Of a DNA stretch of 64,000 bases, positions 2,251 through 60,424 are shown piece after piece (position 1 is the stretch's first letter; each line of letters starts with the position of its first letter). Below the pieces are notes generated by a model, which did not search any database, was not told the origin of the DNA, and was given only the letters and a program-made list of their open reading frames with translations. This DNA comes from Fistulifera solaris (lineage: Eukaryota): NCBI GenBank assembly GCA_030295235.1, contig AP026164.1:744001-808000 (forward strand), written 5' to 3'. A program made the position numbers and the translations under genes.

Positions 2251-4055
2251 ATGGTTGTGAATACCCTCGCTCACCACATGCCCGTCATTGCGGAAGGAGC
2301 GACGATCCCTGATGACGCCCCTTTCATCGAAAGTGACAACTTGATTCCTCATGAAACAACTCCTTTTGTACGATACAAACGACGATCTTCCAGTACAAGT
2401 TCGATCTTCCCCGACGACTTTTTTTGTTCCGGAAAAATTAGGTCTTGTCTCGTTTTCCATCTTGGTCTTTTACAATGTTTCCGGAGGACCCTTTGGAGTC
2501 GAAGCGAGTGTCCGCGCCGGCGGCAATTTTTATTCTTTACTGGGATTTCTCGTCGTTCCTTTGATATGGTCGTTACAAGAAGCGGCCATGACGGCCGAAT
2601 TGGGTGCGGCCTTTCCGGAAGCTTCGGGAGGAGTAGCGTGGGTGGAAGAAGCCTTTGGGTCGACGGCCGGTTGGATGTCGGGATATTTGAATTGGGTCGC
2701 GGGAGCGACCGACAATGCGATTTATCCAGTGCTCTTTTTAGAGTACGTCATGCAGATTTTCAAAGCCAGTGTACTGGAGGAAATTGAATCGGCGCACTCG
2801 GACACGATGCATCATTTGATTCGCATTTTTCTCATTACGGCGATATCCACGTCATTGGCGTATATCAACTGGTTGGGATTGGAGTTGGTGGGTCGTATTA
2901 GTATACTCATCTGCTTTGTCGCGATGAGTCCGTTCGTTCTACTCTTGCTCGTGGGTGCTGCCAAATGTGATCCCAGTCGGTGGTTTGAAATACCCGATCA
3001 AATTTGTTCGGATCATACCGTGAGCTTCTGGGAAAGTGGATTCGTGACGACGGGTGTCTTATGGCGACCCTTGATCAACAATTTGTATTGGAATTTGAAC
3101 TCTTTTGATGCAGCGGGAAGCTTTGCCGCCGATGTCGATGATCCCAACAAGACCTTTGCCCGGGGAATGATGTGGGGTCTCCTGCTTGTGACGATTGGCT
3201 ACTTTGTACCGTTATTGATTGCCACGGGAGCCTCCGATACGCCTCATTCCAGAGTGGGTGGAAGGCTATCTTGCCGGTATAGCCTTTGATGTGGGAGGAG
3301 TTTGGCTAGGAGCTTGGACTGTGTTTGCTGCCGGGGTCAGCAATATTGCCATGTTTCAAGCAGAGATGAGTGCTGATGCCTATCAAGGTACGTCTCGAAA
3401 AATGATAAAAGTCGCCATTTCATTTGCCATGTGTTTTATTGATTACTATTCTCACTCGTTCACCTTGGTTAAAAACTTCACTTCTTGCTTCAACTATACC
3501 TTACGGTTCTTACGTTTTACAATTTCCGATACAACTTTCCTGTATTTTTTCAACATTCACTACGTTATTTAATTCACTCGAATGGGACTATAATGGGCTA
3601 CAGTGATGGGAATGGCGGAGCGAGGCTTTTTGCCCAAGATTTTCGCTCGCCGCAGTCGACAAGGAACACCCACTTACGGTATCCTACTTGGAACAGCGGT
3701 CATCATTGTGGCTTCGTCATTCTCTAATTTTGACGAACTCGTGGAGATGCTCAACTTCATGTACACTCTTTCTCTCGTGTTTGAATTTGCTGCCTTTATC
3801 AAGCTCCGAGTATCGCACAGCGAGACACATCGCCCATGGAAAGTGCCGCTCAATACCTTTGGTTGCATTCTGTTTTTGCTGCCAACTATGGTCTTTATGG
3901 TCATTATTATTGTCATTGCTTCATGGAAGAGTTACGTATTTGCTCTCGTCTTTGGAATGATTGGTTTTTTCTTATTTCTGTCATCCGAGTCGCGGAGACA
4001 AGCCAGTCGACGGAACAAGGAGGGCAGTTCTGCCGACGATAAAGATAAGCTGTAA
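2251..4055 (+). CDS. APC-superfamily amino acid/polyamine transporter, paralog B (intron 3388..3603)
   Basis: ATG at 2251 with the same motifs as paralog A. Frameshifts at the T7 run 2419-2425 and near 3250. Removing GT..AG intron 3388..3603 gives SADAYQ-V-MGMAERG. Confidence 0.88.
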
Positions 4056-6199: not shown

Positions 6200-8514
6200 T
6201 CAGTGTAATTCAGCCGCTTTTAGACTCCATTCAGAAGCGACTTTCATTTTCCCTGCGTTCACAGCCTCGTCGGCAGCAAGTGCATACAATCTAGAAGCTT
6301 CGTCAACTTTGCCCAGCCTCTCTTTTACTTGTGCAAGGTCTGCAAGCAGATCATATGTTTCTATTGCAAATTTATCGTCGTCTTCACCCTCGCCACCGAA
6401 AGCCTCCTCGTCCGACAAGGGGCCACCTAAAGTTGTTTGAGTGGCTGTCGGAGGAATGAGTAAACGTACATGGTTTTTTCCAAGTGTTTCTAAAGATCCG
6501 TCGTCGTCGTAACAAACGGTGATGGAATTTCCGTCATCGGCAACCGACTGGACAGTACCGCTGTAATAAGTGCCCTCCAAGCTGTAGTTCCCCTCGACTC
6601 GGTCACCTGTGTTGAATGTCGGTTGCGTGGATAGTCTTAAGCTTCTCGTCTTGTGACGTGTTGCTTCGTCTTTCTCCTCTGTGGCTGAATTAATTAAATT
6701 AACAGTATCAGCTAAAATTTGTTCCATCATTTCATCGGAACATGACTGTTCACCAATCAGAGACGATTCGTCTCTTAAAATTTGAATCAGCAGGCATCCA
6801 GCTGCTGCTTTTGGTGACGAAGGAGTGTAAGGGCTATTCATCGCTCTTCTCAAGAGTTCTTTCGCGCCCTCGAAATCAACCGGAATAATTGAACTGAGTA
6901 AGTTTGATACCGATGACTCAAGATTTGCCTGGACACGAGCAAGGGCTAAACAAGCTGGTGCGTTATGAAGCGCTGCCGCATACGAGAGATGAAAAACCAC
7001 GGAAGCAACATCGTGGTCGTCCACAGCGTCACCGTGGTAGTCAGGAACTGTCTCGGGAAATCGGCCCATGCCATGTAGAACAGCAAGCTGGTAGTGAATT
7101 TTCCCAAGATTTTTGGTCGTTTCGTCGCTTGGAACCATCGGGGCAGAGACCTTCCTAACGATAGCACTTCCACGAAGCTTGGAGTATCCATCTGAATCAT
7201 TTCTTTTGAAATGCCGCTCGCGAAGCTCACCTGATATTTTGCGATGAAAATCACGATGCGAAAATTCCAAGTCGTGCTTGGCTCGGATCAGACATGCAGT
7301 AATTTCATCAACATCACTAGAACTACGTGCCAAACCAGGTGATCTGGGTTTTAGGAGAGAGTGTCGAACTCTGTCACTGATCGACTGGCGACGCGATATG
7401 TTAGACTGCCTTTGCGTATCTTGGAGTCCTTCTGGTAGTAAGTCTCTGGGGTTTAGTAACGCACTTTGTCGCCGCATCCTGTTTGCATCGAGCTTTTGGA
7501 ATGTATTAACTTCTTCTTCCAATGAAGCGTCATCGTCCGAGATCGTCTCTTCATCCTCTTCATACTTTGCTTGACTTTTGAGCTCATTTCGTGAGAGAGG
7601 AAACACTGGAATCCCTAATGCGTCAGATAAGGTGGAATGGCGAAAGTTTTTGAAAAATAAAGCCATGCCTCTGGGACCCAAATCACCATCTCCAAATCTA
7701 TAATCACTGGACAACACTTGGGGGTCAGTGTAGAGATCCCCGACACCTTGAATATCTGCAACCAGACGATTCCCTTGACTGGCATGGAAGGAGAATGCGC
7801 TGAAAACTTGTGGTGTGATTCGTCTTAAATCAGTGTCAACAAATCCAGCGTTCGTATTGTGCTTTACAAAACCAGCCCCATAGCGATCCGTTCCGGCAAT
7901 AAACCTCTCCACGGCGAACCATGGCTTTCCGGGTCGATCAGGAAACTCAACAGCATAGGCCCGGATAAAAACGATCTTGCTGGGTGGTTCACAAGCATTG
8001 AACCTAGTCGCCCAATATTGCGCCTCGTATTGCAACATGATGTCGTTTTGTACTGCTCGCTTTGCCTCATCGGAAGTGTCGATTACCCCACCCTTGTGAT
8101 AAGCTTTGGCAACATAGTTGTTCGCATAGGCCCAGCCAAGTTTGTGAAAGCCTCGATTTGTTGCAGACAATGGTGGTTGGGCCCGCTTCTTCATCCGATA
8201 ACAAAATCGCATAGCGCCGTTGGTAAAAGAATCTCTCTCGATCTTTACAATCGTTTCGTCGGATGTCCATGACTCTTCTTGGGGATTATAAAGATGACTT
8301 TTCAGCAGAAGAATAATGAGGAAGGCATCCTCTTTTTATAGTACTCGCACATCAACTCTTACCGAATAACTCTCTCCGCCGGAATCTTATGTATCTCGTG
8401 TTTCGCCCAAGGATCGCCTTCCTCAATGGCTTGTGCAGCCGATGAGCGCAAAAGTTGCAGCACGCTCTTCTTTCGCGCATTGCGATCGGCTTGCTGGATT
8501 GTTGCGGTGTCCAT
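6200..8514 (-). CDS. Alpha-kinase, eukaryotic elongation factor 2 kinase-like, with C-terminal SEL1/TPR-like helices and Tudor-like insert
   Basis: Exon 1 is 8363..8514 (GDPWAKHEIHKIPAERVIR), intron 8298..8362, exon 2 reads HLYNPQEESWTSDETIVKIERDSFTNGAMRFCYR. Alpha-kinase motifs KHNTNAGFV, VADIQGVGDLYTDPQ, FGDGDLGPRGM. LGKIHYQLA resembles the eEF2K C-terminal region. Confidence 0.88.
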
Positions 8515-9987: not shown

Positions 9988-10656
9988 TCAAAAATTGTTG
10001 CATGTCACAGTATGTTCGGAAAATGTCACCGAGGGTGTGCGGACTGCGGACAGACTTGAACCTTTTCAGTCTAGTCTCGTGAATAAAGGTAAGACGACTC
10101 ATTTTTCAAAGTCAGTCATGTCGCAGCGACATTTCCAATACACTTTGAAATGTAGATTTGTTGGTTTTAAAACTTAAAACTTGGAAGTCTTTTCGGATCT
10201 TTGACACATACTTGGACTGTCTGCCATTGTGTAGAATGGAAAACGTTGACAAAATTCTTGATCTTGATCTTTTCGCTCGCCAGCGCGATCCGACAACCTT
10301 TGGTGCGCTGCTTGCTGCCACCAACGCTGTTTGAAGCATCCATCAATAATGCAGACGATTTAACAACGATCTTGTTGTCATTACCCACTGCACACTGACA
10401 TCTTCTATTCAGTAAAGAAAGCTGTGTCATTGAATTGCTTTATAGAACAAAAGCAAACAGCAGCAGGCAACCACACCTACGGAAGTGCTTTGTTGAACTC
10501 AATTTCTTTCCATTTTCTCGTGTCTTGTTCACGAATCTTGGAGTTATATTCTGATTGATTGATCGACGGATACGTTTGTACACATTCTCCAAGAAGATTG
10601 GAATACTCGCACGATTTATCTACCTGCTGGCTACCGTTTTTACATCGCGCACTATT

Positions 10657-13600
10657 ATGTCAACACGCAACGCAGCGTACCGAATTTCGGGGGCACATGA
10701 GTGCGGCTATGACGATGAAGATGATACCGATGGATCTCGTGCGGATCGCCACGGCTCAAGAGCTGGTAAATATGCTGAACGAGCTTCTTCTGACTATGCA
10801 GCCGGAGATGAAACAGATGATGAGCGTAATAGTTCTTTTGAGGGAGGAGGAGATGAGGCAACAAATCCTGATGACGAAGATGACGGTCATCATGTTGAAT
10901 CACCAAATGCGAAATATTATGAGCATATTTCCTCAAAGTCTCGCCTTAAGAGTGCCACTGTTGACCCAGGCACTCCCGGAAAAGTGGTTGAAACAGGAAA
11001 AGAACACACGGGTCGCTGGACTAAGGCAGAGCATGAAGCTTTCTTAGCTGGATTGAAAATGTACGGCAAAGAGTGGAAGAAGGTCGCCGCTAGAGTCAAG
11101 ACCAGAACTGTAGTCCAGACTAGAACGCATGCACAAAAATATTTTCAAAAGTTGCACAAAACATCAGAAGATTCAGGAAACGACTACGTTTCTCGCGCGG
11201 ATTTGGGAGTTTCTGGAGAAACGAAGCGTGGCAACAGCCAAAAGGCAAAGCGAACTACTGATACCGTTGCATCGACTCCGCTGATAGTACGCCCATTATC
11301 ACCAATGAGCAGGAAGCAAAATCGCCGATCCAGCAGCTCTACCTTTGATGCTGCACAAGTTATCTCGAATCTGAGTGGTGGTTCGAAACCGAATGCGCTA
11401 CAGAGTGTTAAATTGGTCCCCAGTTTGCCAACCACACCTTCCATCACTCCTCCTCTTAAGCACGGCTTTTCGACAGAACCTGGTTTACCGTCGTGGGTAT
11501 TGGGGGCCGCGCGGGGTCAAAATGGAACTGATAGCATGATCAAAATCGCTGCACCAGATCCGTCAATAAGTCTACGAAAGGGATTTCCAGAACCTTCTCC
11601 AGCCGCGACAGGAAAAAGAAAACTTGCAGAAATTGCTGCTGCTCGGATGCTTGCTGGTGTAGGAAGCAGTCCTTTAGCGTCGGGCGGTGTAGACGACTGT
11701 CCCCCAACGCCTCCGCCATCGTCGCTGGGACTTGTTGAGGCACCGTTTGTGCCTGCTCTTTCATTTTCGGGATTCAATTCACTGGAGACAAGGAACAAGG
11801 CTTCGTCTTTGGTGCCTCTTCAAATTGTCAACCCAGAGGCGCTTGGAGTGACATTCGGGGAGCAGCTCAAGAGAAAGAGGGACGGAGAAGGTTCACCCGT
11901 GACCCCATGGGAAGGCCAATTGAAGGCACTGGTAGATGAAAAAGTTACCAAAAAAAGTAGAAGCGGATTTTGGGCTGGGATTTGAGTCAACATCACCTTT
12001 GGCCATGTCTTTAGAACCGTCGTCTATCCGGAATCTTCTACCTGTCTGCGGACCAAGTAAAGGATATAATCGGAGTAAGGTCCACCAAGCTGTCTGCGAT
12101 ATTGATGACAAAGGCCTTGATGAACTTTTTAATGAACAGGATGTATCATAGCGGAAATGTGCTAAACCGACAAGATGATGCGGGCTTTCGCCCTCTTCAT
12201 TCAGCTTGTGCGATGATCCTCAAAGACCCGGATAGTGCCAAAACAATAACCAAGATCATTGGTCGGCTTTTTGGAATTGGGGGCCGACCCGTCACTGCAG
12301 GATAGTGACGGTAACACTTGCTTACACTGGGCAGCACGTTCTGGCGAGAAGAGTGTTGTTCGTCAATTGCTTCACAGGAATGCAGCAGTAGATGCTAGGA
12401 ATAAAAGCGGTGAAACTCCTCTTCATCACGCATTACGGTCTGGATTAAGGGGAATTGACGCTGCGGCCGAGCTTTTGGATAGTGGAGCTCGACCAAGTAT
12501 AACAGATAATCAATTTCGACGCCCCGTCGATGTAGCCGGGCAAGGCTTTCTTGACGAACCTCATTCCGTTACTTCACTTCGAGCAAAAGAACAAAATGCC
12601 AAAAAGTCGTCCAGCAAGGAGTTAAAAAAGTTGCTGAAAGATACTGCCGATGCAAGAAGGGAATCTCGTGCCAATTTGCTGATCCGGTCGCCTCAGTCTA
12701 GATCGCTAGTGCTTCATCACCCTGAATGTTTAGAACACCACCCGAAGTCATCCACTGATTGGGAGGCACCTGACCGAATCACGACCATCATAAGAAGAGT
12801 GATACCATCATTCGATTCCACTGGAGTTGCTGAAAACTCTGGCATTTTTCCTCATGAGGTTGTTGTTTCTCAGGAATTTGACCGTGCAACATTGAGCATG
12901 TTGAGCAGGGTGCATAGTACCGAGTACTTAGCCTTCGTCAACAATCTAAGCAACGATTTGAGGAATCAAGCCAGGGAGCCTCTGAGAAAGGGCGAAAGCT
13001 GTATCGAAGATGATGCTTGCAAACCACCCGTTGTCCCGTTTACTCCACTAGTCCAACGGACTATGATCAAGGTCGACGAATCAAGTGTTAAACTAAGCGC
13101 GAATTCTGATACCTCTTTCAGCTCAGGGTCTCTCAAAGCTGCGCGGAGGGCCGCAGGAAGCGTGCAGCATGCGGTTGATTGGTATGTTTCAATTGTCATT
13201 TATTTGTATGCGACGCTCTTTCACTTACCCACCTCTGCACGCCAGCGTCCTTGTCGGTAGAAATCGAAATGCATTCTGCGTCGTGAGACCGCCGGGTCAC
13301 CACGCAGGGATCAACGGCCTACTAGAAGGAGGAGAGTCGTGCGGTTTCTGTATTTTTAACAATGTTGCTGCCGGTGCACTTTATGCCATCTCAGATGATC
13401 GCCTTTTGTGTGAGCGTTGTGCTATTGTGGACATCGACGTCCATCACGGAAACGGAACAGAAGAAATTGTTAGGAGATGCAACGATCCCAGCAAGCTCTT
13501 CTTCTTTTCTATCCATTTATACGACAATGACAAGCGAAAAGGCAAAGGGCAGTTTCAGTATAAGTTCTATCCAGGAACTGGATCGGACGACGATTTAGCA

Positions 13601-14215
13601 CTGAACATTATAAACGTTCCGATTGTACCTCTCTGGAAAGATCAGGCATCACAATCACAAGCGTCACCCGTCAAAACCCACAACACTCGCAAGAAGACGA
13701 AGTCAACACAAGATGTCGTTGACGATTCTTCGACGGGAACAGGTCGAGGAAGTGACGGAGCAAGTGAAGGCGGATCAGGGAGTACATCGGTGGGCTCTCC
13801 AAGACATACGCCAGGAAAATCTGGACGCACAGCATATCGTGAAGCAATTTTAACACGGCTCTTACCATCACTCCGCGCGTTTAATCCAGATTTGATTATA
13901 ATCAGCGCCGGATTCGATGCATGCAAGGGTGACGTTGGAAACGCACGGCACGAGCGCGGAGGAGAGAAAATGGGTCTCGACCTGGAACCCGAAGATTATG
14001 CCTGGACCACGCGCAAGATTCTTGAGGTAGCTGATATGTGCTGTCACGGAAGAGTTGTATCGGTATTGGAAGGTGGATACGGTAGAACGCCGGTAGCGAA
14101 AGTTGAGGCTGGTGCCGAGGACAAACTGGATCGAACAGTTTTTGCGGAATGTGCGGTTCGACATCTACACGCCCTAATTGACCCATACGATTGCGAACAA
14201 CGTTTTACGTCGTGA
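10657..14215 (+). CDS. Myb-like (SHAQKYF-class) DNA-binding domain + ankyrin repeats + class II-type histone deacetylase fusion
   Basis: Myb: GRWTKAEHEAFLAGLKMYGKEWKKVA..QTRTHAQKYF. Ankyrin: GNTCLHWAA, GETPLHHAL. HDAC: RPPGHHAG, GFCIFNN, DIDVHHGNGT, SAGFDA, LEGGY. Intron 13182..13245. Frameshifts near 11950 (A run), 12130-12150 and 12260. Confidence 0.8.
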
Positions 14216-31807: not shown

Positions 31808-34800
31808 TTATTTGGTTTTTGCCATGACAGCGGCGACCGCAGCAGCGAAAGCTTCAGGGAGTAAAGCAAGCACTCTAGCTGCCTCTTCAGCAACTTCGCT
31901 ATCTTCAGGGTTGTACAAGCTGCAGTTGTCGAACACCAACAAGAAATCTGCAAACAAAGCGGCTGCAGCATCTGAACCAGTTCCGTACTCCCCCTTTTCG
32001 ACTTTCTGTCGCATAGAACCAAAATCCATTGGATGTTCTACAACTTCACTATACCCTGGCGCCTGGTCGTCGGACACAGGCTCAGTGAAAACGTCATATC
32101 GATCATGACTAGAGAACATGGCTGTTAAAACGTTATTCATCAAGGAACAAGTACGACCGCACCCCTTTGCTTACCTGTTCATTTTCAACAAGGTACTAAG
32201 AGCCACTTCCTGGAATTTGTCCTCAATCCTCTCGGGTAACCGCCAAGGACCGAGTTGTGTAAGATTTTTGCGTGCCTTTTTGAATGAACCATCCAGGGAA
32301 TCCCGACGTTTCTTCAAGGCGACCAGGTCAAAGGCAGTATCGTCGATCAGAGACTTCCCCGTAGTTTTACTTGTCACTTTTTTATCTAATGAACTTTTGC
32401 GTTGTCGCTTCGTTCCCGTATTGGCTACATTAGAGCCGTCATGATCAATTGAGCCGTCATCTGTACCAAGATTTTCCACGGAACGTTTCCTCTTGCCTCC
32501 CTTCTTCACTTTTCCAGGCGACGCACCATCTAGAGACATGCGAACACGAGCTTTTCCAGGCATTTTCGCATCAATGGAACTATCGTCACAATGTGTTGAA
32601 GTCTGTTTCTGCTTTGGGGTCTAAACAACTAACACATGAGAGAAATAACTTCTACATAACAGATCGTGTGAAATTGCTTACCTTCTTCTCTACACCCTCG
32701 TCGTCAACACTTCTTCGTTTGCGTCCTTTCTTGGCACTACCCGGCTTCGGTTCCTCGATTATCTCAAGAATCGATCCATCCTCAGCGATGAACAGTCCAT
32801 GCTTGGACGCAGCGTCAAGAAGAAGCTTCGGTCTCATGACGTGTTGATCGAATGCCTCTTTCACGATATCTGATTTTTTGTCATTGTACTTCCGACAGTT
32901 TTGCAGAATAAGAATGAAGTCCTTTTGCATGGCTTGTGCCGAGCGATACTCCCCGTTTTCGAGCTTCTTTTCATCGTGCCGTAATCCATCGGTTTCTCAA
33001 TTTCTTCATAGTAGTCAGGAAAATCTTCTCTCGATACTGGTTCGGAAAAAGTACCACCCCTAGAGCTGTCGTGCTTTATCATTTCGTCCAAAAGAGTTCG
33101 AAGGATCTTTGTAACTGCATGACGAGGGAACACGGGCCACGCACGTCCAGCTGCAGTGGCATCATCGTCGCTAGCGAGCCACTGACGCCTACGTCGCGCT
33201 TCCTTTGCACTAATTTTATCTTTTTTCGTTGTACTTGAATCATACACATCTTCTGCGACATCTGACCAATCTTCTCCAGAGTCCGAGTGGTGCAAATACC
33301 CGTCATCTCCAAGATAACCTCCCCCGTTTTCAGAGAATCTACGTTTCCGGCGGCGTTCAGGTGTTGCTACTGCCGACTCTTCTGCCATCTCGCTTCGCTT
33401 CCTTCTCTTTTTACGCTTCTTGCCTTCGATCCTTAACTCCTGGATTACGTCATCTACTTCCTCCTCTCTTACTCCGGGTTGAAATCGGTTCTGCTCGGAT
33501 ACCCGACATCTTCGACGACGGTCACCCTCAAGCCGTTTCAAGTAAGAGCGAGCTAGATGCCGCTGTTCTTCGTTAAACAATTTTTCCTTTACAGAAATCG
33601 TCAAAAGCAACTTCTGGCAAATAACCTTATCATCTGGGTTCACATCGTCTTCATCTTCTTCGAGTAGCCCCTCCATCATTCCCTTTAAGTCACTGATAAA
33701 TTTCACGACTTTCTTTGCTTGCGCACGCGACAACTGAAATTTGTCTTTGCTTTTCTTTCCTGATTGTTCGTCATCAGCTTCGGAATCTAATTCGTTGTCT
33801 TCTTTCTCAGAAACCGCACCCGCATCATCTGTCGCGATGTTTGCATTGCCTGAATCAAGTGCATCGGGAGTTTTCTCATCTGCCTTTTCCTCGGCTTCAT
33901 CGACTTCATTTGTTGCCTCTTTTGGGGGTCGACCACGTCGCTTACGTCCCCGACCCGGACCTCTTACTTTCCCATCTACCTCGTCTTGAAGTTCTCGTAA
34001 TTTCTGCATCATCAGTCCTGGTGTAACGAAGTTTGGCATGACTTTCTGCCAAAACTCAGGGTCGTCCATATCCAAAGCATCGCCACCAGCTTCAGCAGAA
34101 AATTTTGATTTGCTGATCACCATTCCTTGCTTGTTCAACCAGGACGCAGTCTTAGCTCCCTCAACGACACGAGTTCGGGTTCGTTTGGCGAGTATACTTT
34201 CAATATCGTCAGCACAGAACTCTTTTGTGATTTCATCGTTTTCGTCCTCTAAAAGCGCATATGCCCCGCGCTTCAACAGTTGCTCCATTTCTTGTTGAGT
34301 CGGCTTGTCGTCATCTCTATCCTTCTCAAATGTTCCAAGTACAGCCTGCTCTAGACCCAGTTTCTTGCTAGCACGGTCGAACATCTCCTGTTCAAAACTA
34401 CGACTAGTTACAAGACGGTAAATTCGTACGTCGCGTGTCTGCCCGATTCTGTGACATCTTGCCTGAGCTTGGACGTCATTTTGTCTGAGAAAATAGAGGA
34501 CTTTTGAGAGTCTGTGATTGCTTCCAACCAAGAAAACTCTTAACGTGTTTTTCACTTACGGATTCCAGTCACTGTCAAAGATGATGCATATGTCGGCCGC
34601 AGTAAGATTAATTCCGACACCACCAGCTCTGGTTGACAGCAGGAAAAGGAAACTGTCCGACTCACTTTCAAAGCGATCGATTGCCTTCTGTCGTTCGGTT
34701 CCACGAATGCGACCATCGAGACGTTCGTAGCGGAAATCACGGAACTCGCAATATTCTGATATCAGATCGAGCATTTTCACCATCTGGCTGAAAATCAAAA

Positions 34801-37800
34801 CTTTGTGGCCTTCTTGTCGTAACTTGGGAAGAAGCTTGTCCAAAAGCACCATTTTACCGCTCGACATAACATAGCCTTGCTCATTGACCATGTGCTGCTG
34901 CTCCTCGGGTGTTTTCCCTTCAAATGCACCTTTTTCAGACAATTCTCTGTAAATTCGATCAAGCTCCCTGTGTTCTACACCATCAAGAAGGAAAGGATGG
35001 TTACATGCTTTACGGAGCTCCATTTGGATGTTCATGAGCTTCGGCGTTACCTGGCGATTAATTCCGATGCTCAAAAAAGCATGGTTGTGCTCGAAAATGG
35101 CCCTGTAGTACTGCTTCTGAAGACTAGTAAGCTCTACGTCAATGACGGTCTCTTCTTTAGCGGGAATATCCTTGGCCACATCGTCTTTCACTCTTCGAAG
35201 CATGAATGGCGAAATCATCTGTTGCAAATTTTCGACCTGCTCTTGATTCGCCATGTTTCCGAATCTAGACTGAAAGTCATCGAGTTCCGGGAATTGATAC
35301 GGCTCGATAAAATTTAATAAGGTCCATAATTCCTTAAAGAGAAAAGCGTCGAGTGAGCACGGTCCCTAAAGGAAATGGATGGTGACTAAGCAAGGACAAC
35401 TTACGGTAAGATCGTTTTGCAGAGGTGTTCCTGACATAAGAACTCGACTTTGGTAACCGTACTGCATTGTTCCTCTGGCACTTATTTCTCGCATGCATTC
35501 AAGTAATTTTCCTCTCTGATTACGTAGGCGATGGGCTTCGTCTACAACAGCGACACGAAAGGGAATAGCACTGATAACATCGAAATCTCCGATCAAAGTG
35601 TCGTACGTTGTAACCAAAACATCAAACTTCAAATACTCGGGCGTGTGTGGTCTATCCTCAAAATACCATTCATATTCTCTCAAAACATCACGCCATACCC
35701 GTTGTCGATCGTGGTAGATGCAGCACACCATATCAGTCCATCCTTCAAACTCTCTTCGCCAATGTTCCACGGTAGATAGGGGCACAACTACAAGGAAAGG
35801 ACGTCGTATTTTTTCTACACGGAAAAGATGATCGATGAAGCAGACAATTTGAACAGTTTTCCCAAGCCCCATTTCATCCGCCAAAATGCATCCTTGCCGT
35901 TTGTACCAGACGCTTGATAGCCAGTTTACACCATCAATCTGATAGTCACGCAATTTGTTTCCATTCTTGTATATATGTGGCTCATTCGGATCATAAAGCT
36001 TATCTCGGAACTCCAACCATGCCTCTTGAGCTTTCTTGCCTCCACCGCCACGCGTCTGGGGCGCACCGGCTGTTACCTTTGCTCCTGCTGCAGCATATCT
36101 CCACTTGTATCCACCGACTTCGTCGCCGATTTCTTCGTCGTAGTCATCGAGAAGAACCTGACGCAAATCTTGCAAAGGGAGCTGCAGTGTAGCGGCAGCT
36201 GATTCAACGTTGGCCCAAATGTGCAAAACCTCTCCGGTCGAAACGGAAATTTGCTCAATCTTTACTGTTGACTTCTTGATCGATTTTGATGGCGTATCGG
36301 ATGCTTCTTTCTCATCAGATTTCATTGGCGATTCTTCTAGACTAATTTGTGGAAATCCATCAAAGGCTGCCTCGTCTGGTTGATCGGGAGATATTAGGAC
36401 AGCGGCTGCTAGTTTGGCACGCTCCCCGAGAGTCGAAAACTCTGTTTGTCTGGCTGGAAGTGAGGATCTTTCGTCCTCTTTGGTTCTTTTGGTTTTGATC
36501 GCTTGCTCACTAGCCTTTGCAGTGGTAAATGTTTGATCGACTCCATCCAAAAAGTAAGCCCGGTCTTCGGTACCGCCTTCATCACTACTATAACCAATGT
36601 CCGTGTCAAGAAGTCTGAATGCAAGGGACTGCGTCGTCTCTTCAGTTTCAACAACACCGTTCTCAAAGTGACTTTTGTAATCGTCAGGATGAACTTCCGG
36701 AGCTAAATCGGTAGATGATTTCTCTTTTCCCAGCTGCGTAGCTTCCCCATTGGCTGAATCCCCTGCAGCGGGTTCTGTAGCTACGTGTGCTTTATCTGAA
36801 GCATTCTGAGCCATTTCGTCATCCTCGCTATCAGGTTCGAATTCACCTTCGCTACCACCTTCCTCGGAATCGTCGTCTGAATCACCTCTCTCGCTCTCTG
36901 AATCTAAGTCGTCAGATCGGTCGACTTCGTCATTAATGTTTTCAACTATATGCTGCCGTTGCAGTAAAATGCGTTGGCGGTCAGACATGAACTTAGTACG
37001 CATTTCCTCTATTGCGTAGCGGCCCTTGTCGCCAGAGCTGACGAGATGCGTATCGCATCCGGAAAGGCCATTTTCGAGGAAGCGCATGTAGGCAAATTTG
37101 TTCTTTCCACTTTCTTTTAACAATCCGATCACTTCTTTGAAAGTCTTCCCGATTGTTCCAACCCCATCCACAGCAATGATCTTATCTCCAATGTTGCGCA
37201 CTAGCTTTCTCTCTTCAGCAGGACCCTTGGTCCCATCAGGAAATGCCCTATAACCAAGAAAAGCGACCACACCATTGATCTCTCCTACGTTCATCATCAA
37301 GCCCTTCGATGTGATGGGTATTACAGCGTCATATTCGCCCTGCATAAGCGGCGGTAGAGAGGCAGAACAGCTTTGTGTCTTCGATTCTTTTCGTGCAACT
37401 CGAAAAACGATATCAGAAACGCACGAAACAACATCACCTGGGTGCCCCGAGCCATTACGACTTAATTTAACATTCAGTGACGCACAATTCATCAAGAAAG
37501 CTTGTGTATGTGGTCCGCATTCGGCGGTTAAATTGGGAGGGGGACACGAAACTCCAAATTTCAAGAACTCGAACGAGCGTGTTTGCGCATAGAGCTGACT
37601 GCGCAACAGTGGTGTACATCCTTGTCCTCCTGCGTTTTCTTCAATTGTATGCTTTGTTCCCATTAAGGTTTTTGTCACAGCCTGCGCTTCAACTTCCGTT
37701 TCGTCGGCATGACTGCTATTGAGTTTCCTGAAGTCTGCTATAAGTTTATCGTCGTTGATATCGGCTCTGGTTTCCCACGTGCAGAACTCATAACCAAGGT

Positions 37801-39803
37801 TCTTCCATTTCACCAGAAACATGCTTTGCTTCATCTTCTTCATGGGAATATCACCTAGCTCAGCTCTTTTCCTGGCAGCATTTTCTGCAACTGCAGAGAG
37901 CATTTTAATCCCCTTAGCGGTTTTTAACTTCGGCTTGCATTCGGGGCAATGCCACGCCCTGGAGGGGGCTTTCTTCAATTGAGGTGTGACGCACTTGAAC
38001 CCATACATTGCATCACAATGGTCGCATAATACCATTTGATCATCCGGGGTTTCGCACGACCCATCGTGACATCTACAAGTGTGCTCCCAGGGGCGGGCAC
38101 GAGGGTCCTTCCAACGCAAATATCGTTCCCGAAATTCAAGTACCCACGCGTGATAAAGCCGTTCGAAAAGTTTCGACATGTAGTCGGCTACATGCCATAT
38201 CGCCGACCCGTGTTGGTTGTATATCTTGCAATTGTTCCACACCTAATAAAGTTGATGAGACGAAGTGAGGTAGGTACAGTAATCTTTCGTCCGGCAAAAA
38301 CAAACTTACCTTTCGCATGTCGCGCGCAAATTGTTCGGGCATTTGATATTTTTTGCTCATCAGTTTGTTTCGAACGGTTCCAAGATCCATTGGAGAGTCA
38401 ATAAACTCTTCGTAGTCTGGAAAGTCCTCTGTATTTACGGGTTCAAGGAATATATCTGCAAAGCTATCTTTCGCCAACCGTTCCAACACCATCAGGCACC
38501 GTCTAAGAGGCTGCCACACCTCATTGGGCTTCTGGGCTTTAGCAAGCAGCACTTTCTCTTTTTCGTACTGCCGAGCTTCTTCCTGCGATAACAGTACAAA
38601 TGGCTCCTTCTGTTCGTCTGTCATGGATCGCCACTTTTCAGCGACGATGGACATTATCTCAGCCTGAATTGCATTTGGATTCTTCTTCTGAAAATACGAA
38701 CGTAGAGTGCACTGAAAGAATATGTAGGAAGCGCGAGGTTTTTTTGGCGGTTCAGTAACATATCCGTCTCTGTATGGGTTATCCGAACCTTCAACTTTGA
38801 CGTAGTAAGGATCCTCTTTTGCCACAATGGCTCTCAACTTTTCGAGAGTCAGCTTGCTAAAATCAATCTCATCACCCGTCAAAAAAATCGAAAAGATCTC
38901 CGGCATCTTCTTCCTTTGGAACACTTTCCTCAGATGGTACTTGTTTGTCAACAGTCACCTCAACTTTTGGACCTTTTTCCTTTTTACTCTCGGAGGAGTC
39001 GTCACTCTCTTCAGCAAGCTCTTTTTCGCGTTCTTTTCCCACCGAAGAAGCTCTTTATCGGTCAATTCTATGGAGATTTCCTGCTCAGCCTCATCCAAAA
39101 TTCTTTCAGGTATGAGATAATTCGGGTCGAACTCAGGATTCTCAAGGTCCTCTTCCGTACCAGCATGCACTTTCTTGACAAATCGCCTGTATATCCCTTT
39201 TGCTGATTTGTTCATGCTCTCGAGATCGGCGCCCCTCTTCCATTCCAAATGAAGGTACGAACGCCCCTTGTACTTAACCAGATATTCATATTCGACGAGC
39301 TCTTCTGACTGTTCCCCATTTCTTGGAGATCTTGTTGAAGGCGAAGAAGCTTTTTTCTTAACGTTGTTTTTTCGACGAATGGGTCGACTGGCGCCATCAT
39401 CATTGGAATCTTCATTTAAAGAATCTTCGCCATCGGCATCTTGAGCGTCTTCTTTGTCGTCCACTGGACGACGCCCCACGATGAGTTCAATTCTGGGGGA
39501 TCCGTCTTCCTCGTATTCCGGCAGGAAAGGAAAGCGATCGCGGATCGGGGGAAGGGCCGGATCGTATCCTTTTTCCGTGTAAACAGGGCGGTTGTCATAC
39601 TCTTCTTCGTCATCCTCGACAGCAGCAGACGTCGTAACAACCGTAGTACGAACTCCGGCTCCTTTCGACTTGCGGCCTCTTCGTTTAACCGGCGGCGGAG
39701 CCTCTTCCTCGCTATCTTCGAACAGATCAACGTCGCTGAACTCTTGCTCCTTGCCGTAATCGACCCGCTTGATCGAGGCTCGACGAGCACGGCCTTCTGA
39801 CAT
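31808..39803 (-). CDS. CHD-type SNF2 chromatin remodeler with chromo, HMG-box, bromo, PHD, chromo, PDZ-like, ATPase/helicase and two C-terminal bromodomains
   Basis: ATG 39803. Motifs YLVKYKGRSYLHLEW, PPKKPRASYIFF, FLEPV..PDY..PMDLGT, LCDHCD..WHCPEC, FLVKWKNLGY..TWE, ILADEMGLGKT, DEAH, HKVLIFSQM, STRAGGVGINL, QAQARCHRIGQ. Introns 38243..38309, 35333..35404, 34485..34559, 32622..32681, 32109..32174. Frameshifts near 39035, 38885 and 32970. Confidence 0.9.
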
Positions 39804-40781
39804 TTCTTCCTGGTTTACAATAAAAACAGTTGCGCAATCAAATTCTGAAGAAAGATCGAGAAACAAGGGTGAGTGGTTCATCGAATACATTTCTCGTACG
39901 GTATTTTCCCCCATACTATTATCCAGTCGTATGGCTGAATTGCGCACGTTGCGGAGAGCACCGATTGCCCAACATATATTTATACTCGTATTTTCATCCA
40001 TAAATCAATATCGTTACAAAAAGTGGTAAGTACACAGCCAAGTTGCTATCTCGGGACGCCGAAATTGAAAAAGTACCAACTTGGCGTGCACTTTTTGGAA
40101 TTACGACGAACCAAAAAAAATCGCATGTGGCGAACGGACCAAAACTCGGCCATGGCCTTCACATTTCTCGGTAAAGTATCCAAAAACCCCAAAAACAATG
40201 TCGAATGATCGATGCGAAACCCTTTTGAGCACATACCTAATACTTACAATGTGATAATCAAATAAGTAAACACAGTCAATGCAATCGATGCATTTGTTTG
40301 CGTCGATGGCCTGAAAACGCAGTGTAGCTCTGTTTACGCTCAAGCGGACGAGGTTGTGGAGCGCGCGCATGGCCAAAAGTTTTTTGAATAGAAATTCCTT
40401 TCTTGTGTTAAAAGAACTATTGGCGACGGAATCTGACAAATGCACCTACACCAACCATTTCTGTAAAAAAAGTGTAGAAGAGGATATTCTAATGCGGAAA
40501 GTACCAAGATTCCATTGGCACTGGCACGTCCTGCGCCGGTGCGCTGACGATGGGCGCGAATGGACCCTGCTGGCGTGCACTAATCCAACAGACACTCAAC
40601 GGACAAGAGTCATGCCGGCAGGCTCAGGTACTACGTAGTATTGGCGGAGAAAAGAATGGATGAAAGATGAGACTTCCCTCGAGAGGCGTAATCAAACAGT
40701 GGAGGAAGAACGTCTACAGTCTACAACAAAATTGCAATACCATTAACCAGGTACTCCTTACTTCGTATTACAAGCATATCA

Positions 40782-43700
40782 ATGTCTTCACCAGCAAAGA
40801 CTTCCAATCGACCAGGAAGACGTCGAAAGGCTCCCCAAAAAGACTTGATGCGAGAAACGACATCAATGCAGCGCTTGGTGGAATATTTCGTAATCATCAC
40901 CCCATCACCGAGATGGACAAAGAAACCTGAAATCTCCGCCGATGATTCACTGCCTGTTCCTTCAAACCACGAATTGCAACAAAGCTCCGAAGTAAGCGGT
41001 CATGGTACCGAAGGAAATATTCACATGCCGAAAACTCGCAACGATTATGCTTTTCAGCCTGTCATATCCGCCAGGTATCCAACACGCGACTACGAGGACA
41101 ATCCTCTCAATCCTATGATTCTGCAATTTTGCTTCCCTTCTGGTGACGTGATCACTCCTAGTCGGACTTATCAGCTTCCGCAAGTACACCATTTCGTTTT
41201 AACAAACGAACAAGGACAAAAAGTGTACGGAACATGTTTAACAGTTTTCGAAGAGTATGAACCGGATGGGCCGTGGAAGAGTCAAGCTATGACTTTAGAA
41301 GGGGCGAATGGCATCGAGCTCGCTGTCGATGAACGGGGGAAAGACCTCTATTTGCCAAAGGTACTCTGTTTGCTCTCGACCTGGCCCTACTTGACTGCGA
41401 TGCGAGAATACCTAGCACAGCTTTACCGACTGGCCACTTCCACCAACATAATGACAGAACCGATAGAACGCTACATTGTTAACATTTGCTGTGAAATTCC
41501 TGCTCCACCGCCGGGTGCATATGAAGTACAAGTCAATATACTTGACTCGACGATTCGCTTTTGGGCCCCTCCAGCTAGGCTACCCATTGCTTATGTTGCC
41601 TTACCCTACCAAATTCTCTTTGAGTGCCTCGATATACACAATATCCTATCCGTCTGGACAGCCTTGATTCTGGAAAGAAAGGTACTGCTCCTTTCAAGTC
41701 ACGTAAGTTGGCATGGCCACAGTAATTTCGACTTGAGATGCTTTTCAACTCACACATTGTTTCAAAGTATTCTATATTGACAGTCTGCGCCGAAGTGTTG
41801 TGCTCCCTTCTTTTCCGATGAGATGGAGTCACTTGTACGTTCCATTATTGCCTAAAATGTTCGCTCCCATGCTGGATGCGCCAGTTCCTTTTCTGTGCGG
41901 AGTGGTCAGAGATTCTTGGATGTACACCCAAAAGTTCATCAGCCAGGATGTCGTCGTCGTGGACCTAGACAACAATAACATTGAATATGGCCAAGAGTTT
42001 CCCCCGATACCGCCACCGCCCGCCAAGAAATTTCATAAGCTGAGAGCAATTTTAACGGATTTCGTTGGACCTGATTTCTGGAGAGCCCACGGGGTGGAGA
42101 ATGAGTACGAAAGTCTCAAACACAAGCAGAATAAGAAAGGCACAATAGAAACATTGCGAAAATTGACCAACGGGTCGTCGTTATGGAAAGAAAAGCGAGC
42201 CTCTCTTGACAACGCTTTCAGCTTGGCTTACACACCTGACTCTCCAGGCTTGTTAAATGATGGACTACCAGAGAGTGAGAAAACAAAGTGGGCTAACGTC
42301 CAGGAAGCATTTCACCAATTCTTCGTGGGCGTGTTCAAAGATTATCGAAAGCATTTTTCTGTCGTTGATGGATCAAGACAAGTGTTCGATCAAAAAGCTT
42401 TCTTAGCCCAGCAAAAACCAAACAACCTATCGTTTATATCTGAAATGTGTATGAGTCAGCAGTTCAACGATTTTCTTACCAGACGACTTGTGAGTCCAGG
42501 AGACCCTGACTTAATATTTTTCGATCAGAGCATTGACGCGAAAAGAACAGAAGCAAACTTCAATTTAGAAAGAAAGAAACTCCATTTCTTCGGAGTGCAA
42601 ATGCGCACAAAGAACTCAAGAAATTCGTCTCGGTAACGCCTGGCAGAGATGGCCTAGTTGATGACGGAAGGCCGTTCGTGTACAAAAAGTGGCCTGAATT
42701 ATTCACCGACGAATACTTCTGCGAGCCTCGTCCAATTCCAGAGATGATAACTGCAGAATTCGATCGTCAGGCCGGACTAATTGCCAAAATGCGTTTGGAC
42801 ATATACGATGATGAGGTCAACTACATTGGAAGCAGCAACGCTATCGCCAAGTTTCACGAGGATACTTCCAGCAAATCCCCTGAGTCGGAAACGTTCTCTG
42901 TTTTCTTTCTTACTTATTGCGCGATGGTCGGACGAGATTGGAAGCGATTCATAAAAAGGCGACAACTCATTATGTCCACAACCGAAAGAAGTGTATCAGG
43001 CAGCCGTTCAGCACATTTCGTAGAGCGTCCATCAAATAGGCCCAGATCGACAACAGAGGCCATTGTTTCGGATTTGACTCTCGGGATTTGCGATATGTGT
43101 ACGCGCTCTGAATTTCAGGCTGCGTTGAAGCATATCGAAACGCATGGCATAGGTCGTGTCGATGCTCTATTTTTCGGAGACGAAAATTATGATTTACCAC
43201 GCTCAATTTCAATTCCGGCAAATCATTTTTCAGTAGATAGTTCCAGCGTAGACGTTTCGTCTGATTTAGAAGAAGCGCGAGCAATCGCATCCGCGCAACT
43301 CGACCTGGCTTTTCAAACTTTGGAGACTGCATCTTTGAGGGGTCTATCACTCGATTCGGATAGCTACTCGTCGCTAATGGAGTCGTGTGGGCGCTGTGGC
43401 GACACCCGACATGCAATGCACCTTATCGAGTTGATGAAAAACGACGGACATGTTGCTGATAGTGAAGTTCTTTCCCATTTCGTCGCGGCGTTTGCCCATG
43501 GAGAAGCAGACGCACTCTCGTCTGCCCACGTTACAAGCAGTGACGCTCACCCATTTGATGAAACTGCTTCAACTGAAAATGGCTCAAAATCGCTTCATCT
43601 GAGAAGAAATCTAGCCTTAAGGGAGGATGCAAGTAGCCTGGCACTTGAGCTAGAAGCCTGCGAGGTATTTTCAGAAAGCGACAGCCCGGATCGTAACTTA

Positions 43701-44350
43701 GCGGCGTCAGCTTCATTCAGCACTAGTCAAACTGGAACGTCCGTGAACCTAGACTGGTTCTCTCGTTACCGCCACAGTCTTGCGAAGAAGAAGTCGAAAG
43801 TACGAAAAAAAGCGCTCAAGGACGAACAGTCAAAGGTGGTTGTTACAGAAATGATTGACAGACAGCTACTTCTTGGCGAATGTCTTATCGATCTTCTTTA
43901 TCCGGATTTGAAAATTCACACAGACCGCGATTCTTGTCCTCATTGTTCTTTTGTTCTAAGTGAGAGAGACGTTATTGCTGGCTGGTCGGCTTCTATTTCT
44001 CAAGAGTGCAAAACAATGTGTCCTCAATGCAAGCATCGCTTCGTTGCCCAATTCAACGTTTCGACGTCTGCTTCGAGCTTCAGTGGTTCTCAGGGAAAAG
44101 GCACCCCTCTTTTTTGCGAATTCCTCTCTCCGTGGACAATAAAAAGGAAATCCAAAACATTATCCATGGCACTGTCGGCATAGATGGAATAATAAGTCGC
44201 GAATGGCGTGAAAGCTCAGATTGGACTGCAACCTTGTTTTGGAATCTCATCCTTCTTTTCAGAAGGTACCGGCTGCCCTTTGCATTTCTATTGCAGGGTA
44301 GCTTCGATAACATGGTAATTCTGCCACCCAAGCCCGACGAATTGACTTAA
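40782..44350 (+). CDS. DENN-domain Rab GEF, DENND4-like (uDENN-cDENN-dDENN, PPR-like helix pair, C-terminal CxxC..CxxC)
   Basis: FCFPSG, HHFVLTNEQGQKVYGTCL, YLPKVLCLLSTWPY, LILERKVLLLS, WSHLYVPLLP, LDAPVPFLCG, PPR-like SYSSLMESCGRCGD, CPHC..IAGWS..CPQC. Intron 41703..41767. Frameshifts near 41815, 42545 and 44165. Confidence 0.88.
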
Positions 44351-58044: not shown

Positions 58045-60424
58045 TTAATCATCTTCTTTGAGAGTGAAGCCCTTCTTCAACTCATCTTCGATATTGGGTG
58101 GGACGAAGTCGTAGCTTGCAAGTTTCATGGAGTAGTTGGCTCGTCCCTTGCTCATGGATCGAAGAGTTGAGACGTACTGGAACATGTTGGCAAGAGGAAC
58201 TCGGGCAGAGATGGTCTTAACATTTCCGCGTTCACCAAGATCCCCAACTAAACCACGACGAGCATTGATATCACCGAGAATATCTCCCATGTACTCTTCC
58301 GGTGTAGTAACGTCGACTTGCATGAGAGGCTCCATGAGTCGAGCTTTGGCCTTTCGTAGACCTTCACGAGCGGCGGCGCGTCCAGCAATTTCGAAAGCCA
58401 TGACAGACGAATCGACATCGTGATAGGCTCCGTCAATGAGAGTCGCCTTCAAACCCAAAATAGGATATCCAGCCACGACACCGGTTCCAAGGACAGATTC
58501 AATACCCTTTTGAACACCTGGAATGTATTCTTTGGGAACACTTCCACCCTTGATGTCCGAAATAAACTCGAAGTCGGTGTTGCCATCCTCGCTGTTGAGG
58601 TCTTTGGGCTCAAACTTGACCTTGATTCTCGCGTACTGACCGGATCCTCCAGATTGCTTCTTGTGAGTGTAGTCGATTTCAGCCGGCTGAGTGATTGCCT
58701 CACGATAAGACACTTGGGGTGCTCCCACGTTGCATTCAACATTGAACTCGCGCTTCATGCGATCGACAATGATTTCGAGATGCAGTTCGCCCATTCCCTC
58801 AATGACCGTCTGACCAGTCTCTTCATCACGCGAAAATCGGAAAGAGGGGTCTTCTGATGCCAATTTGATAAGGGCCTCAGACATCTTCTGCTGATCGCCC
58901 TTTGTCTTTGGTTCCACAGCAACCTTGATGACTGGCTCAGGGAATTCCATCTTCTCCAAGATGACGGCATTCTCCTTTTGCATAGAGTTTCACCAGTAGT
59001 GGTATCTTTCAAACCAACCAGGGCAACGATATCTCCAGCAACGGCGGACTTGACTTCAGTTCGTTCGTTGGCGTGCATTTGCAACATACGACCGATGCGT
59101 TCATTCTTGCCCTTGACAGAGTTGTAAACGGTTGTACCAGCCTCCATCACACCAGAGTAAACACGAGTGAATGTGAGGGTTCCGACGAATGGATCGGTGG
59201 CAACTTTGAACGCAAGAGCAGACATGGGCTCGGCATCGGACGAATATCGCTGGGTTGGCTCACCAGCCTCGTCGACCCCAGCAATAGCCAACACGTCAAG
59301 AGGAGAGGGCATGTAATCAACAACAGCATCAAGTAGCGGCTGTACACCCTTGTTCTTGAAAGCAGTTCCGGTGACAACAGGAACAAAGGAAAGACTGAGG
59401 GTTCCCTTTCGAATCAATCTCTTGAGAGTGGCAGCGTCGGGCTGGACTCCCTCAAGATACTCCATTAGTACATCCTCGTCCTGCTCCACGGCAATCTCAA
59501 CGAGCTTTTCACGCCATTCCTGTGCTTTGGCCTTCAAAGCATCATCTACGAGGGGGATATCGTTGCACTCATCCAGAGGAATGCGATCGAACGAGGCACC
59601 CAGGTCCTCACCACGCCACACAACTGCTTCCATGGTGACGAGATCAATAACACCAAGAAAGTCAGACTCAGTTCCGATCGGAAGTTGAAGTACGGCCGGT
59701 GTGGCTCCTAGCAAGTTAATGATAGTGTCAACGCAGAAATAAAAGTTTGCGCCCGTGCGGTCCATTTTATTCAAGAAGCACATACGGGGGACTTTGTACT
59801 TGTCGGCCTGTCGCCACACAGTCTCGGTCTGAGGCTCAACACCAGCAACTCCATCGAATACTGCGACGGCTCCGTCAAGAACTCGAAGGGAACGCTCGAC
59901 TTCGAGAGTAAAGTCGACGTGCCCTGGAGTATCAATAATGTTGATGCGATGATCTTTCCATTCGCAAGTGGTGGCAGCAGAGGTAATAGTAATACCACGC
60001 TCTTGTTCCTGTACCATCCAATCCATGGTTGCTCCTCCTTCATGAACTTCACCGATCTTGTACGATTTACCGGTGTAATAAAGGATACGTTCGGTGGTGG
60101 TCGTCTTTCCGGCATCAATGTGCGCCATGATTCCGATGTTACGGTAGAATTCAAGGTCGACTTCACGAAGGGGCGACGACGATGCCTTGGCTTTGTCGAT
60201 ATCCTGCGCCTGTTCTACAACACAAAGTCCTTTCTAATATTTCATCACAAGTCAGATACTGTAAAGATTCGAGACTTGAAACAGCTAGCGATATTCAAAC
60301 TCCGGTCGACGAAAAAACTCACCTGAACAGTCGGAACACGAAGACCGAAAAGAGAGTTGGGGGCAAACGCCCCAACCTGTGAGAAGGAAAGGAATAGGAC
60401 AAATGCCCCAGCAAAAGACGGCAT
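58045..60424 (-). CDS. fusA: Elongation factor G, plastid (nucleus-encoded)
   Basis: [62 protein letters not shown]. Exon 1 encodes [22 protein letters not shown]. Intron 60234..60322. Frameshift near 58980. Confidence 0.95.

Follow-up and report, generated by a model that had tools for sequence, protein, structure and literature searches.

A Myb domain, ankyrin repeats and a class II histone deacetylase domain encoded as one polypeptide in Fistulifera solaris

Results

Domain content of the gene

The stretch of Fistulifera solaris DNA analysed here (64,000 nucleotides (nt); assembly GCA_030295235.1, contig AP026164.1, positions 744,001 to 808,000 of the forward strand; hereafter the window) contains at 10657..14215 of its + strand one gene that encodes a Myb domain, ankyrin repeats and a histone deacetylase (HDAC) domain as one polypeptide. 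The gene looks intact, and its family, which is conserved but unstudied, adds a Myb domain to the known ankyrin-HDAC type. The overall interpretation, to which a probability of roughly 0.6 is given, is that one gene carries a real and conserved fusion, that its Myb domain docks the deacetylase on a DNA motif, and that the breaks seen in the reading frame of the window copy are miscalls. The window is eukaryotic DNA; its introns are short and of the GT..AG type, and diatom proteins are its nearest relatives.

For the comparison with relatives, 8000 candidate proteins were scored, 4800 of them had E <= 0.001 and the best 120 were analysed; counts of relatives given below refer to these best 120 of 4800. 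The nearest one, P0001, is the F. solaris protein FisN_5Hh340, which has 1164 residues, is uninterrupted, and shares 97% identity with the window over the HDAC piece. The features of the gene are the following.

10657..14215, + strand: Myb-ankyrin-HDAC gene, with ATG at 10657 and TGA at 14213-14215, about 1166 codons via three single-base breaks and one intron
10555-11985, 11936-12151, 12015-12305, 12250-13260 and 13097-14215, + strand: stop-to-stop open reading frames (ORFs) in succession
11011..11163, + strand: single Myb repeat of the SHAQKYF/CCA1-like class (PF00249; PDB 6nvz; 52/52 residues identical to P0001)
11584..11658, + strand: conserved linker motif FPEPSPAATGKRKLAEIAAARMLAG, with GKRK at 11611-11622 (family consensus; helix 325-336 in the model)
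11824..11946, + strand: linker motifs IVNP (11824-35), KRKR (11869-80) and TPWEGQLKALV (from 11902) (family consensus)
11950..11956, + strand: frame break 1, one extra A in an A7 run (KVTKK|VEADF), frame 1 to 2
12080..12545, + strand: about four ankyrin repeats (Pfam Ank families; motifs; helix pairs at P0001 477-610 in the model)
12126..12130, + strand: frame break 2, one extra T in a T5 run (LDEL|LMNRMY), frame 2 to 0
12268..12272, + strand: frame break 3, one extra T in a T5 run (IIGRL|LELGADP), frame 0 to 1, inside an ankyrin repeat
12700..14212, + strand: class II HDAC domain, split by the intron (PF00850; HDAC6 5g0h; Foldseek; invariant columns)
13182..13245, + strand: intron of 64 nt, GTATGT..CAG, splitting a Cys codon (13180-81 + 13246)
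13640..13830, + strand: low-complexity insertion in the HDAC domain, predicted disordered (P0001 990-1023; predicted local distance difference test, pLDDT, < 50)

The Myb repeat was recognised by PF00249 with E 8.3e-11 and 42.3 bits (Pfam cut-off 24.4) at residues 119-163 counted from the ATG at 10657, which correspond to nt 11011-11145, and a script run on the window located THAQKYF at 11125-11145, in the third or recognition helix. Two ankyrin families, PF00023 (E 1.8e-14) and PF12796 (E 4.3e-14), were both matched in the ORF segment 12250-13181, and the repeat signatures GFRPLHSA (12183-12206), GNTCLHWA (12310-12333) and GETPLHHA (12409-12432) were also present. The HDAC domain was matched in two parts by PF00850, the N-terminal one at 12838-13179 (E 1.6e-5) and the larger one at 13247-14212 (E 1.4e-47, 163 bits, cut-off 27.9). 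An earlier note on this DNA had placed the three domains in a row on the + strand, with a Myb of the SHAQKYF class and an HDAC that keeps its catalytic and zinc-binding motifs, and the Pfam and motif positions agree with it on each of these points.

The catalytic motifs of the deacetylase were all located by script: PPGHHAG at 13289-13309, DIDVHHGNG at 13430-13456, SAGFDA at 13904-13921 and LEGGYG at 14066-14083. H862, H863, D906, D908, H910 and D1066 are invariant among the relatives and Y1120 is conserved in at least 90% of them; all seven are kept in the window, and the catalytic roles given to them are those usual in HDACs. Thus the tandem His, the Asp/His/Asp zinc ligands and the Tyr of the GGY motif are all present, in motifs that align with those of HDAC6. 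Among solved structures, the best sequence matches of the domain were HDAC6 (5g0h, E 4.9e-48), HDA15, HDAC4, Clr3 and Hda1. By these matches the enzyme is a class II zinc-dependent HDAC of the HDAC6/Hda1-like kind, with a predicted histone deacetylase activity.

The nearest solved proteins also leave room for another substrate. HDAC6, the Burkholderia HDAC-superfamily protein 5ji5, HDAH and HDAC10 are among them, and some family members are labelled 'AcuC-like' by JGI; the enzyme might accordingly act mainly on non-histone proteins or small molecules, with the Myb and ankyrin parts serving localisation or the choice of substrate. This is considered quite unlikely, as the fusion to a Myb of DNA-binding type and the KRK/KRKR patches would argue for a nuclear role close to chromatin, and by fold the match to Arabidopsis HDA15 (6j6t), which is a nuclear histone deacetylase, is just as good.

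Frame breaks and intron

When P0001 was aligned to the window by tblastn, the match was collinear over the full length of the protein, with M1 at 10657 and the final residue at 14212, and passed through frames 1, 2, 0, 1 and 2, with overlaps between neighbouring alignments and with all residues of P0001 accounted for. The proposal of the earlier note that a single polypeptide holds the three domains is borne out by this uninterrupted collinear protein. It had further described the gene as overlapping ORFs joined without a gap, of which the continuity stands; the junctions themselves are not mere overlaps, as the first three are single extra bases and the last one is the 64-nt intron. The apparent stop at 11983-11985 arises from frame break 1. 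Introns at the first three junctions were also considered and rejected, since P0001 aligns across each of them free of gaps and each break lies in a homopolymer.

The gene has 15 runs of five or more bases, which together make up 78 of its 3559 nt, and all three breaks fall in such runs; therefore, their placement in homopolymers is not due to chance. A read-through was made by placing an X at each of the three breaks and removing the intron. It has 1166 codons without a stop in any of the five pieces, and 1083 of the 1164 positions of P0001 are identical in it, distributed as 52/52 in the Myb, 274/300 in the linker, 139/155 in the ankyrin repeats and 466/484 in the HDAC. All 62 columns that are invariant in the relatives are kept, as are 92 of the 95 near-invariant ones, and at the remaining three the window residue is that of P0001. 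In this comparison the sequence downstream of the first break has no sign of decay, and an old pseudogene was rejected on the conservation of the read-through.

As a control, a Pfam survey of the window found single-base breaks at homopolymers in two further genes, one for elongation factor G (EF-G) and one for an amino-acid permease, so that three unrelated genes in these 64 kb have five such breaks between them. With other genes affected alike, the evidence points to the assembly, and not to the Myb-ankyrin-HDAC locus, as being at fault. Judged from the sequences compared, the most likely cause of the three frame breaks, and with them of the stop at 11985, is that homopolymers were miscalled in the assembly.

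The window copy is probably the homoeologous partner of FisN_5Hh340, and it may be its L partner. F. solaris is reported to be an allodiploid that has unpaired genes and two sets of chromosomes, H and L (PMC5935921). In such a genome the insertions could also be real and the window copy a recently broken homoeolog that would give, at most, a Myb-only protein of 442 residues ending at 11985, leaving the work to FisN_5Hh340. The three breaks do cluster within 330 nt of one gene, and slippage mutations are generally known to favour homopolymers. However, no stop occurs in the five read-through pieces, the 62 invariant columns are kept past the breaks, and the like breaks in the EF-G and permease genes of the same 64 kb implicate the assembly, so that a recently broken copy is held to be unlikely.

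Conservation of the fusion

PF00850 was found in all 120 relatives, an Ank family in 116 and PF00249 in 77, while a count of the motif THAQK[YF]F gave 83, the six extra ones being models that start inside the Myb. The earlier note had said that homologues which never carry both domains would speak against its proposal; this is not the case, as the Myb motif is present in 83 of these PF00850 proteins. Named diatom sources included Amphora, Mayamaea, Epithemia, Cylindrotheca, Nitzschia, Pseudo-nitzschia, Thalassiosira and Skeletonema, and the other photosynthetic stramenopiles named included Triparma laevis, Ectocarpus fasciculatus and a chrysophyte. Several ORFs from MMETSP transcriptomes are marked 'complete', such as P0003, with 1270 residues and all three domains. 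The Labyrinthulids Hondaea and Aurantiochytrium have proteins with ankyrin repeats and HDAC and without Myb. Across the Myb-bearing relatives the stretch KEWKKVA..VKTRTVVQTRTHAQKYFQK is almost unchanged, and Thr stands in place of the canonical Ser in 83 of the 83 with the motif.

A tree was built with FastTree from the ankyrin-HDAC columns (120 rows, 665 columns) and was rooted by choice at the two Labyrinthulid rows. One clade of 114 rows contains every one of the 83 rows with a Myb; six Myb-less rows are basal to this clade, and the diatoms plus Triparma form a clade of 62 rows with support 100. Inside the 114-row clade the rows without Myb are neighbours of near-relatives that bear it, as would be expected of truncated models; the presence or absence of the Myb requires 24 label changes on the tree. 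With its imposed root, the tree fits a Myb that was gained once, ahead of the radiation of the photosynthetic stramenopiles. The aligned proteins indicate that the Myb-ankyrin-HDAC architecture is inherited along this lineage (diatoms, Triparma, Ectocarpus and the chrysophyte) and, because the Labyrinthulid relatives are devoid of Myb, that ankyrin-HDAC is the older unit.

Linker motifs and Myb-only proteins

A search with the Myb region gave 591 candidates and 521 matches, of which the best 120 were examined; 110 of these were new. All 110 contain THAQK[YF]F, and most also have the linker motifs PSPAA[CT]GKRK, IVNP and TPW, so that this Myb marks one family. Three linker motifs are conserved family-wide, FPxPSPAA[CT]GKRKxAExAAAxMLAG, IVNP and TPWxGQLxAL, and are found in the window at 11584-11658, 11824-11835 and 11902-11910, respectively. 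The basic GKRK patch could be a nuclear localisation signal and, more speculatively, the SP site beside it might make import responsive to phosphorylation.

Among the new matches, 20 extend into ankyrin repeats, 62 have TPW without ankyrin, and 28 are too short to judge. In 43 of these 62 the sequence ends exactly 11 residues beyond the start of TPW (TPWEGQLxALVR), and others continue as ...ALVRYV.... From the constant end and the 'RYV' read-through we infer a splice donor of the GGTATGT/GGTAA type that was missed by an intron-blind gene caller, which suggests a conserved intron after TPWEGQLxALV in many diatoms; Fistulifera has no intron at this place. With their constant end at a putative splice donor, the Myb-only proteins are taken as fragments, and not as evidence for separate Myb genes.

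These data bear on whether the window might hold two head-to-tail genes, a Myb factor at 10657-11985 and an ankyrin-HDAC whose start would be an internal ATG such as that at 12005. The stop at 11983-11985 is indeed followed by this ATG in the next frame, and many database proteins are Myb-only. Against this, P0001 crosses the junction without a gap, transcriptome ORFs hold all three domains, two further frame breaks lie inside the ankyrin repeats themselves, and the common end of the 43 TPW proteins, together with the RYV continuation of others, would fit the missed donor. Two separate genes were therefore rejected as highly improbable.

Predicted structure and solved relatives

P0001 was modelled with AlphaFold2 on the 120-row alignment, with a mean pLDDT of 70.4 and a predicted template modelling score (pTM) of 0.66. 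The model has a confident three-helix Myb at P0001 111-177 and a single confident block at 460-1164, composed of four ankyrin helix pairs, a helical connector and the HDAC fold. Disorder was found at 1-110, 178-455 and 990-1023, with short helices at 325-336 and 420-434 on conserved linker motifs. The Ser/Gly/Thr-rich insertion at 13640-13830 differs from P0001 by a 2-residue indel.

Searched against the PDB with Foldseek, the catalytic core was matched alone, by 5ji5, Arabidopsis HDA15 (6j6t), HDAC6 CD2 and HDAH, with target-normalised template modelling (TM) scores of 0.74-0.88; this search gave no solved chain of ankyrin-HDAC or Myb-HDAC type. The nearest clusters in the ESM Atlas were ankyrin-HDACs from Chlorophyta and Bacillariophyta, which serve as a lead only; the search there gave ankyrin-HDAC clusters exclusively.

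For the Myb, the best solved match was 6nvz, an Entamoeba 'Myb family DNA-binding protein shaqkyf family' (E 3.8e-15), followed by the KIAA1915 domain 2cu7 (E 1.9e-8), and the SANT domains of CoREST and SWI/SNF gave weak matches (E 0.005-0.009). The domain has 13 Lys/Arg and 3 Asp/Glu, a net charge of +10 over 50 residues. On these grounds it is assigned to the DNA-binding SHAQKYF/CCA1-like kind, with sequence-specific binding predicted.

The similarity to SANT domains is weak but real (2cu7, E 1.9e-8; CoREST 4czz, E 0.008; SMARCC 2yus, E 0.0088). SANT domains are paired with HDACs in corepressors, and the short conserved linker motifs resemble docking sites. The Myb might thus have a partner or the tails of histones as its ligand, or serve as an intramolecular activator of the deacetylase, and targeting would then be left to proteins bound on the ankyrin repeats or the linker motifs. 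Such a role is judged improbable. The SHAQKYF-family Myb 6nvz is ahead of the next match by seven orders of magnitude, family members have a frozen recognition helix in common, the domain is basic whereas histone-binding SANT domains are typically acidic, and class I enzymes are the partners of the known SANT activators whereas this enzyme is of class II. The SANT-HDAC corepressor module itself (NCoR/SMRT-HDAC3, CoREST/MTA-HDAC1) was rejected as a description of the protein in view of its class II enzyme and of SANT matches at E 0.005-0.009 versus 3.8e-15.

Other genes in the window

Besides the Myb-ankyrin-HDAC gene, the following genes were recognised.

35-1695, - strand: amino-acid permease, with a frame change at the T4 run 635-638 (WTI|FAAGIS) and no room for an intron
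2345-4055, + strand: second amino-acid permease, divergent from the first, with about 380 nt between two Pfam-matched parts
6200-8335, - strand: alpha-kinase family gene (PF02816, E 1.9e-41)
32861-40004, - strand: very large chromatin gene, with an HMG box and a bromodomain (38136-38954), a chromodomain and an SNF2 helicase (34556-38242) and a second bromodomain (32861-34555)
40692-44183, + strand: DENN-domain gene (uDENN, DENN, dDENN) in three overlapping ORFs
58045-60233, - strand: EF-G of organellar type, with a frame change between domains II and III near the A4 run 58976-58979

In the EF-G gene, the alignment to solved EF-G chains leaves one frame at ...TTGETLC and resumes in the other a few codons on, with no room for an intron, and the break looks like a missing base, that is, an assembly indel. 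The matches to solved bacterial EF-G were far stronger than those to mitochondrial EF-G. Going upstream from the Myb-ankyrin-HDAC gene, the first Pfam-annotated ORF with 150 or more residues is that of the alpha-kinase gene. The large chromatin gene consists of ORFs in the same frame parted by single stops, and its SNF2 profile runs 169|169 over a gap of about 69 nt in the alignment, as would be expected of a short in-frame intron with a stop. At the first junction of the DENN gene about 60 nt are unaccounted for, a size similar to that of the intron in the HDAC gene.

Discussion

Much of the photosynthesis in the oceans is due to diatoms and related algae, and how their chromatin enzymes are aimed at particular genes is largely unknown. 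If the interpretation given here is true, a deacetylase with its own DNA-binding domain would offer a direct handle on this question, with one protein, one motif and one mark, in a fusion that is conserved across the lineage and amenable to genome editing in model diatoms. The gene is also a warning that homopolymer indels in this assembly split real genes. Automatic annotation would, as a consequence, list one gene as two, a Myb factor and an ankyrin-HDAC each standing alone, and intron-blind gene calling also splits this family in the databases.

Proposed mechanism

The protein is ordered as a disordered N-terminus, a highly basic Myb, a disordered linker of about 300 residues with three motifs and KRK patches, the ankyrin repeats and the HDAC. 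The Myb domain is proposed to dock the enzyme on a fixed DNA motif, and the flexible linker would give the ankyrin-HDAC module reach to nearby nucleosomes or bound factors. Local deacetylation of lysines in histones or in these factors would then lower transcription. Such a scheme would be the cis-fused counterpart of the recruitment of HDA6 in trans by plant CCA1/LHY, and a self-targeting function of the fusion appears plausible.

Several points weigh against this interpretation. The Myb motif is missing in 37 of the 120 relatives, and although many of these are short or truncated at the N-terminus, some have more than 1000 residues (P0044, P0048, P0054, P0055). The conservation tree comes from FastTree alone and has an imposed root. 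Slippage mutations favour homopolymers as miscalls do, and one copy in an allodiploid can decay, which leaves a small chance that the window copy is a young pseudogene. Sequence-specific binding by this Myb is a prediction, and in chromatin enzymes a lone Myb/SANT repeat can instead have histones or partner proteins as its ligands; 2cu7 is the second-best match of the domain and the SANT domains of CoREST and SWI/SNF match it weakly. Finally, non-histone and polyamine deacetylases (HDAC6, HDAC-like amidohydrolases, HDAC10) are among the nearest solved enzymes, so that the substrate may be other than a histone.

Granted a fusion that docks on DNA, the near constancy of the recognition helix KTRTVVQTRTHAQKYFQK from brown algae to diatoms would imply one ancient cis-element and, as the Myb is CCA1-like, this target element may be of diel or clock type. 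It is tentatively suggested, with less than even odds, that a single-chain enzyme which reads DNA and erases acetyl groups is hard-wired in photosynthetic stramenopiles, with one ancient cis-element commanding local deacetylation. Where the intron after TPWEGQLxALV exists, its retention could yield a Myb-only isoform that competes with the enzyme and blocks its sites.

Comparison with known systems

A full-text literature search, with subscription papers and supplements outside its reach, found no description of a Myb-ankyrin-HDAC protein and no example of a Myb-bearing deacetylase. Three-domain proteins are present in public protein sets under the names 'histone deacetylase' or 'SHAQKYF class myb-like DNA-binding protein', and the fusion is therefore not unique to this genome, being catalogued there but unstudied.

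Ankyrin-HDAC proteins of apicomplexans, 'with relatives in photosynthetic eukaryotes', were reportedly described by Rider & Zhu in 2009. Like the fusion reported here, the ankyrin-HDACs of apicomplexans, oomycetes and algae have the ankyrin repeats N-terminal to a class II HDAC. For the apicomplexan proteins the likeness to the fusion family considered here is one of architecture, and no apicomplexan sequence was among the best 120 relatives. HDA2 of Phytophthora infestans is tabulated as '[ankyrin repeats], histone deacetylase' (PMC4030286), and Phatr3_J4423 of Phaeodactylum is listed as 'Ankyrin repeat; Histone deacetylase domain' (PMC11492738). The fusion family adds to this type the THAQKYF Myb and a long linker with motifs, whereas the Labyrinthulid relatives and the Phytophthora entry lack the Myb.

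With the SHAQKYF Mybs of CCA1/LHY/RVE type, the domain shares a single repeat and the xHAQKYF signature in helix 3, with Thr in place of Ser. Plant CCA1/LHY recruit a deacetylase in trans, whereas in the fusion family it lies on the same chain; in plants, CCA1/LHY are reported to associate with an LDL1/2-HDA6 complex (PMC6237806). The variant THAQK(Y/F) is recorded in Entamoeba invadens EiMybS7/S9 (PMC10887745). SHAQKYF Mybs have been counted in algae (PMC4827209), and a survey of brown-algal MYB proteins mentions neither deacetylase nor ankyrin (PMC8854648).

The enzyme has in common with HDAC6, Hda1 and HDA15 the catalytic core, the tandem His, the Asp-His-Asp zinc ligands and the catalytic Tyr. 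It differs from them in having one catalytic domain without a zinc-finger ubiquitin-binding domain or a RanBP2 finger, and in a disordered insertion of a few dozen residues within the domain.

Chromatin enzymes with a DNA-binding module of their own include MYSM1 (KIAA1915), REF6, JARID and PRDM9, and the KIAA1915 domain (2cu7) is the second-best solved match of the Myb described here. These proteins follow the same logic as the fusion, a reader or DNA-binding module joined to a histone-modifying enzyme, but the enzymes differ, being a deubiquitinase, demethylases and a methyltransferase there and a deacetylase here.

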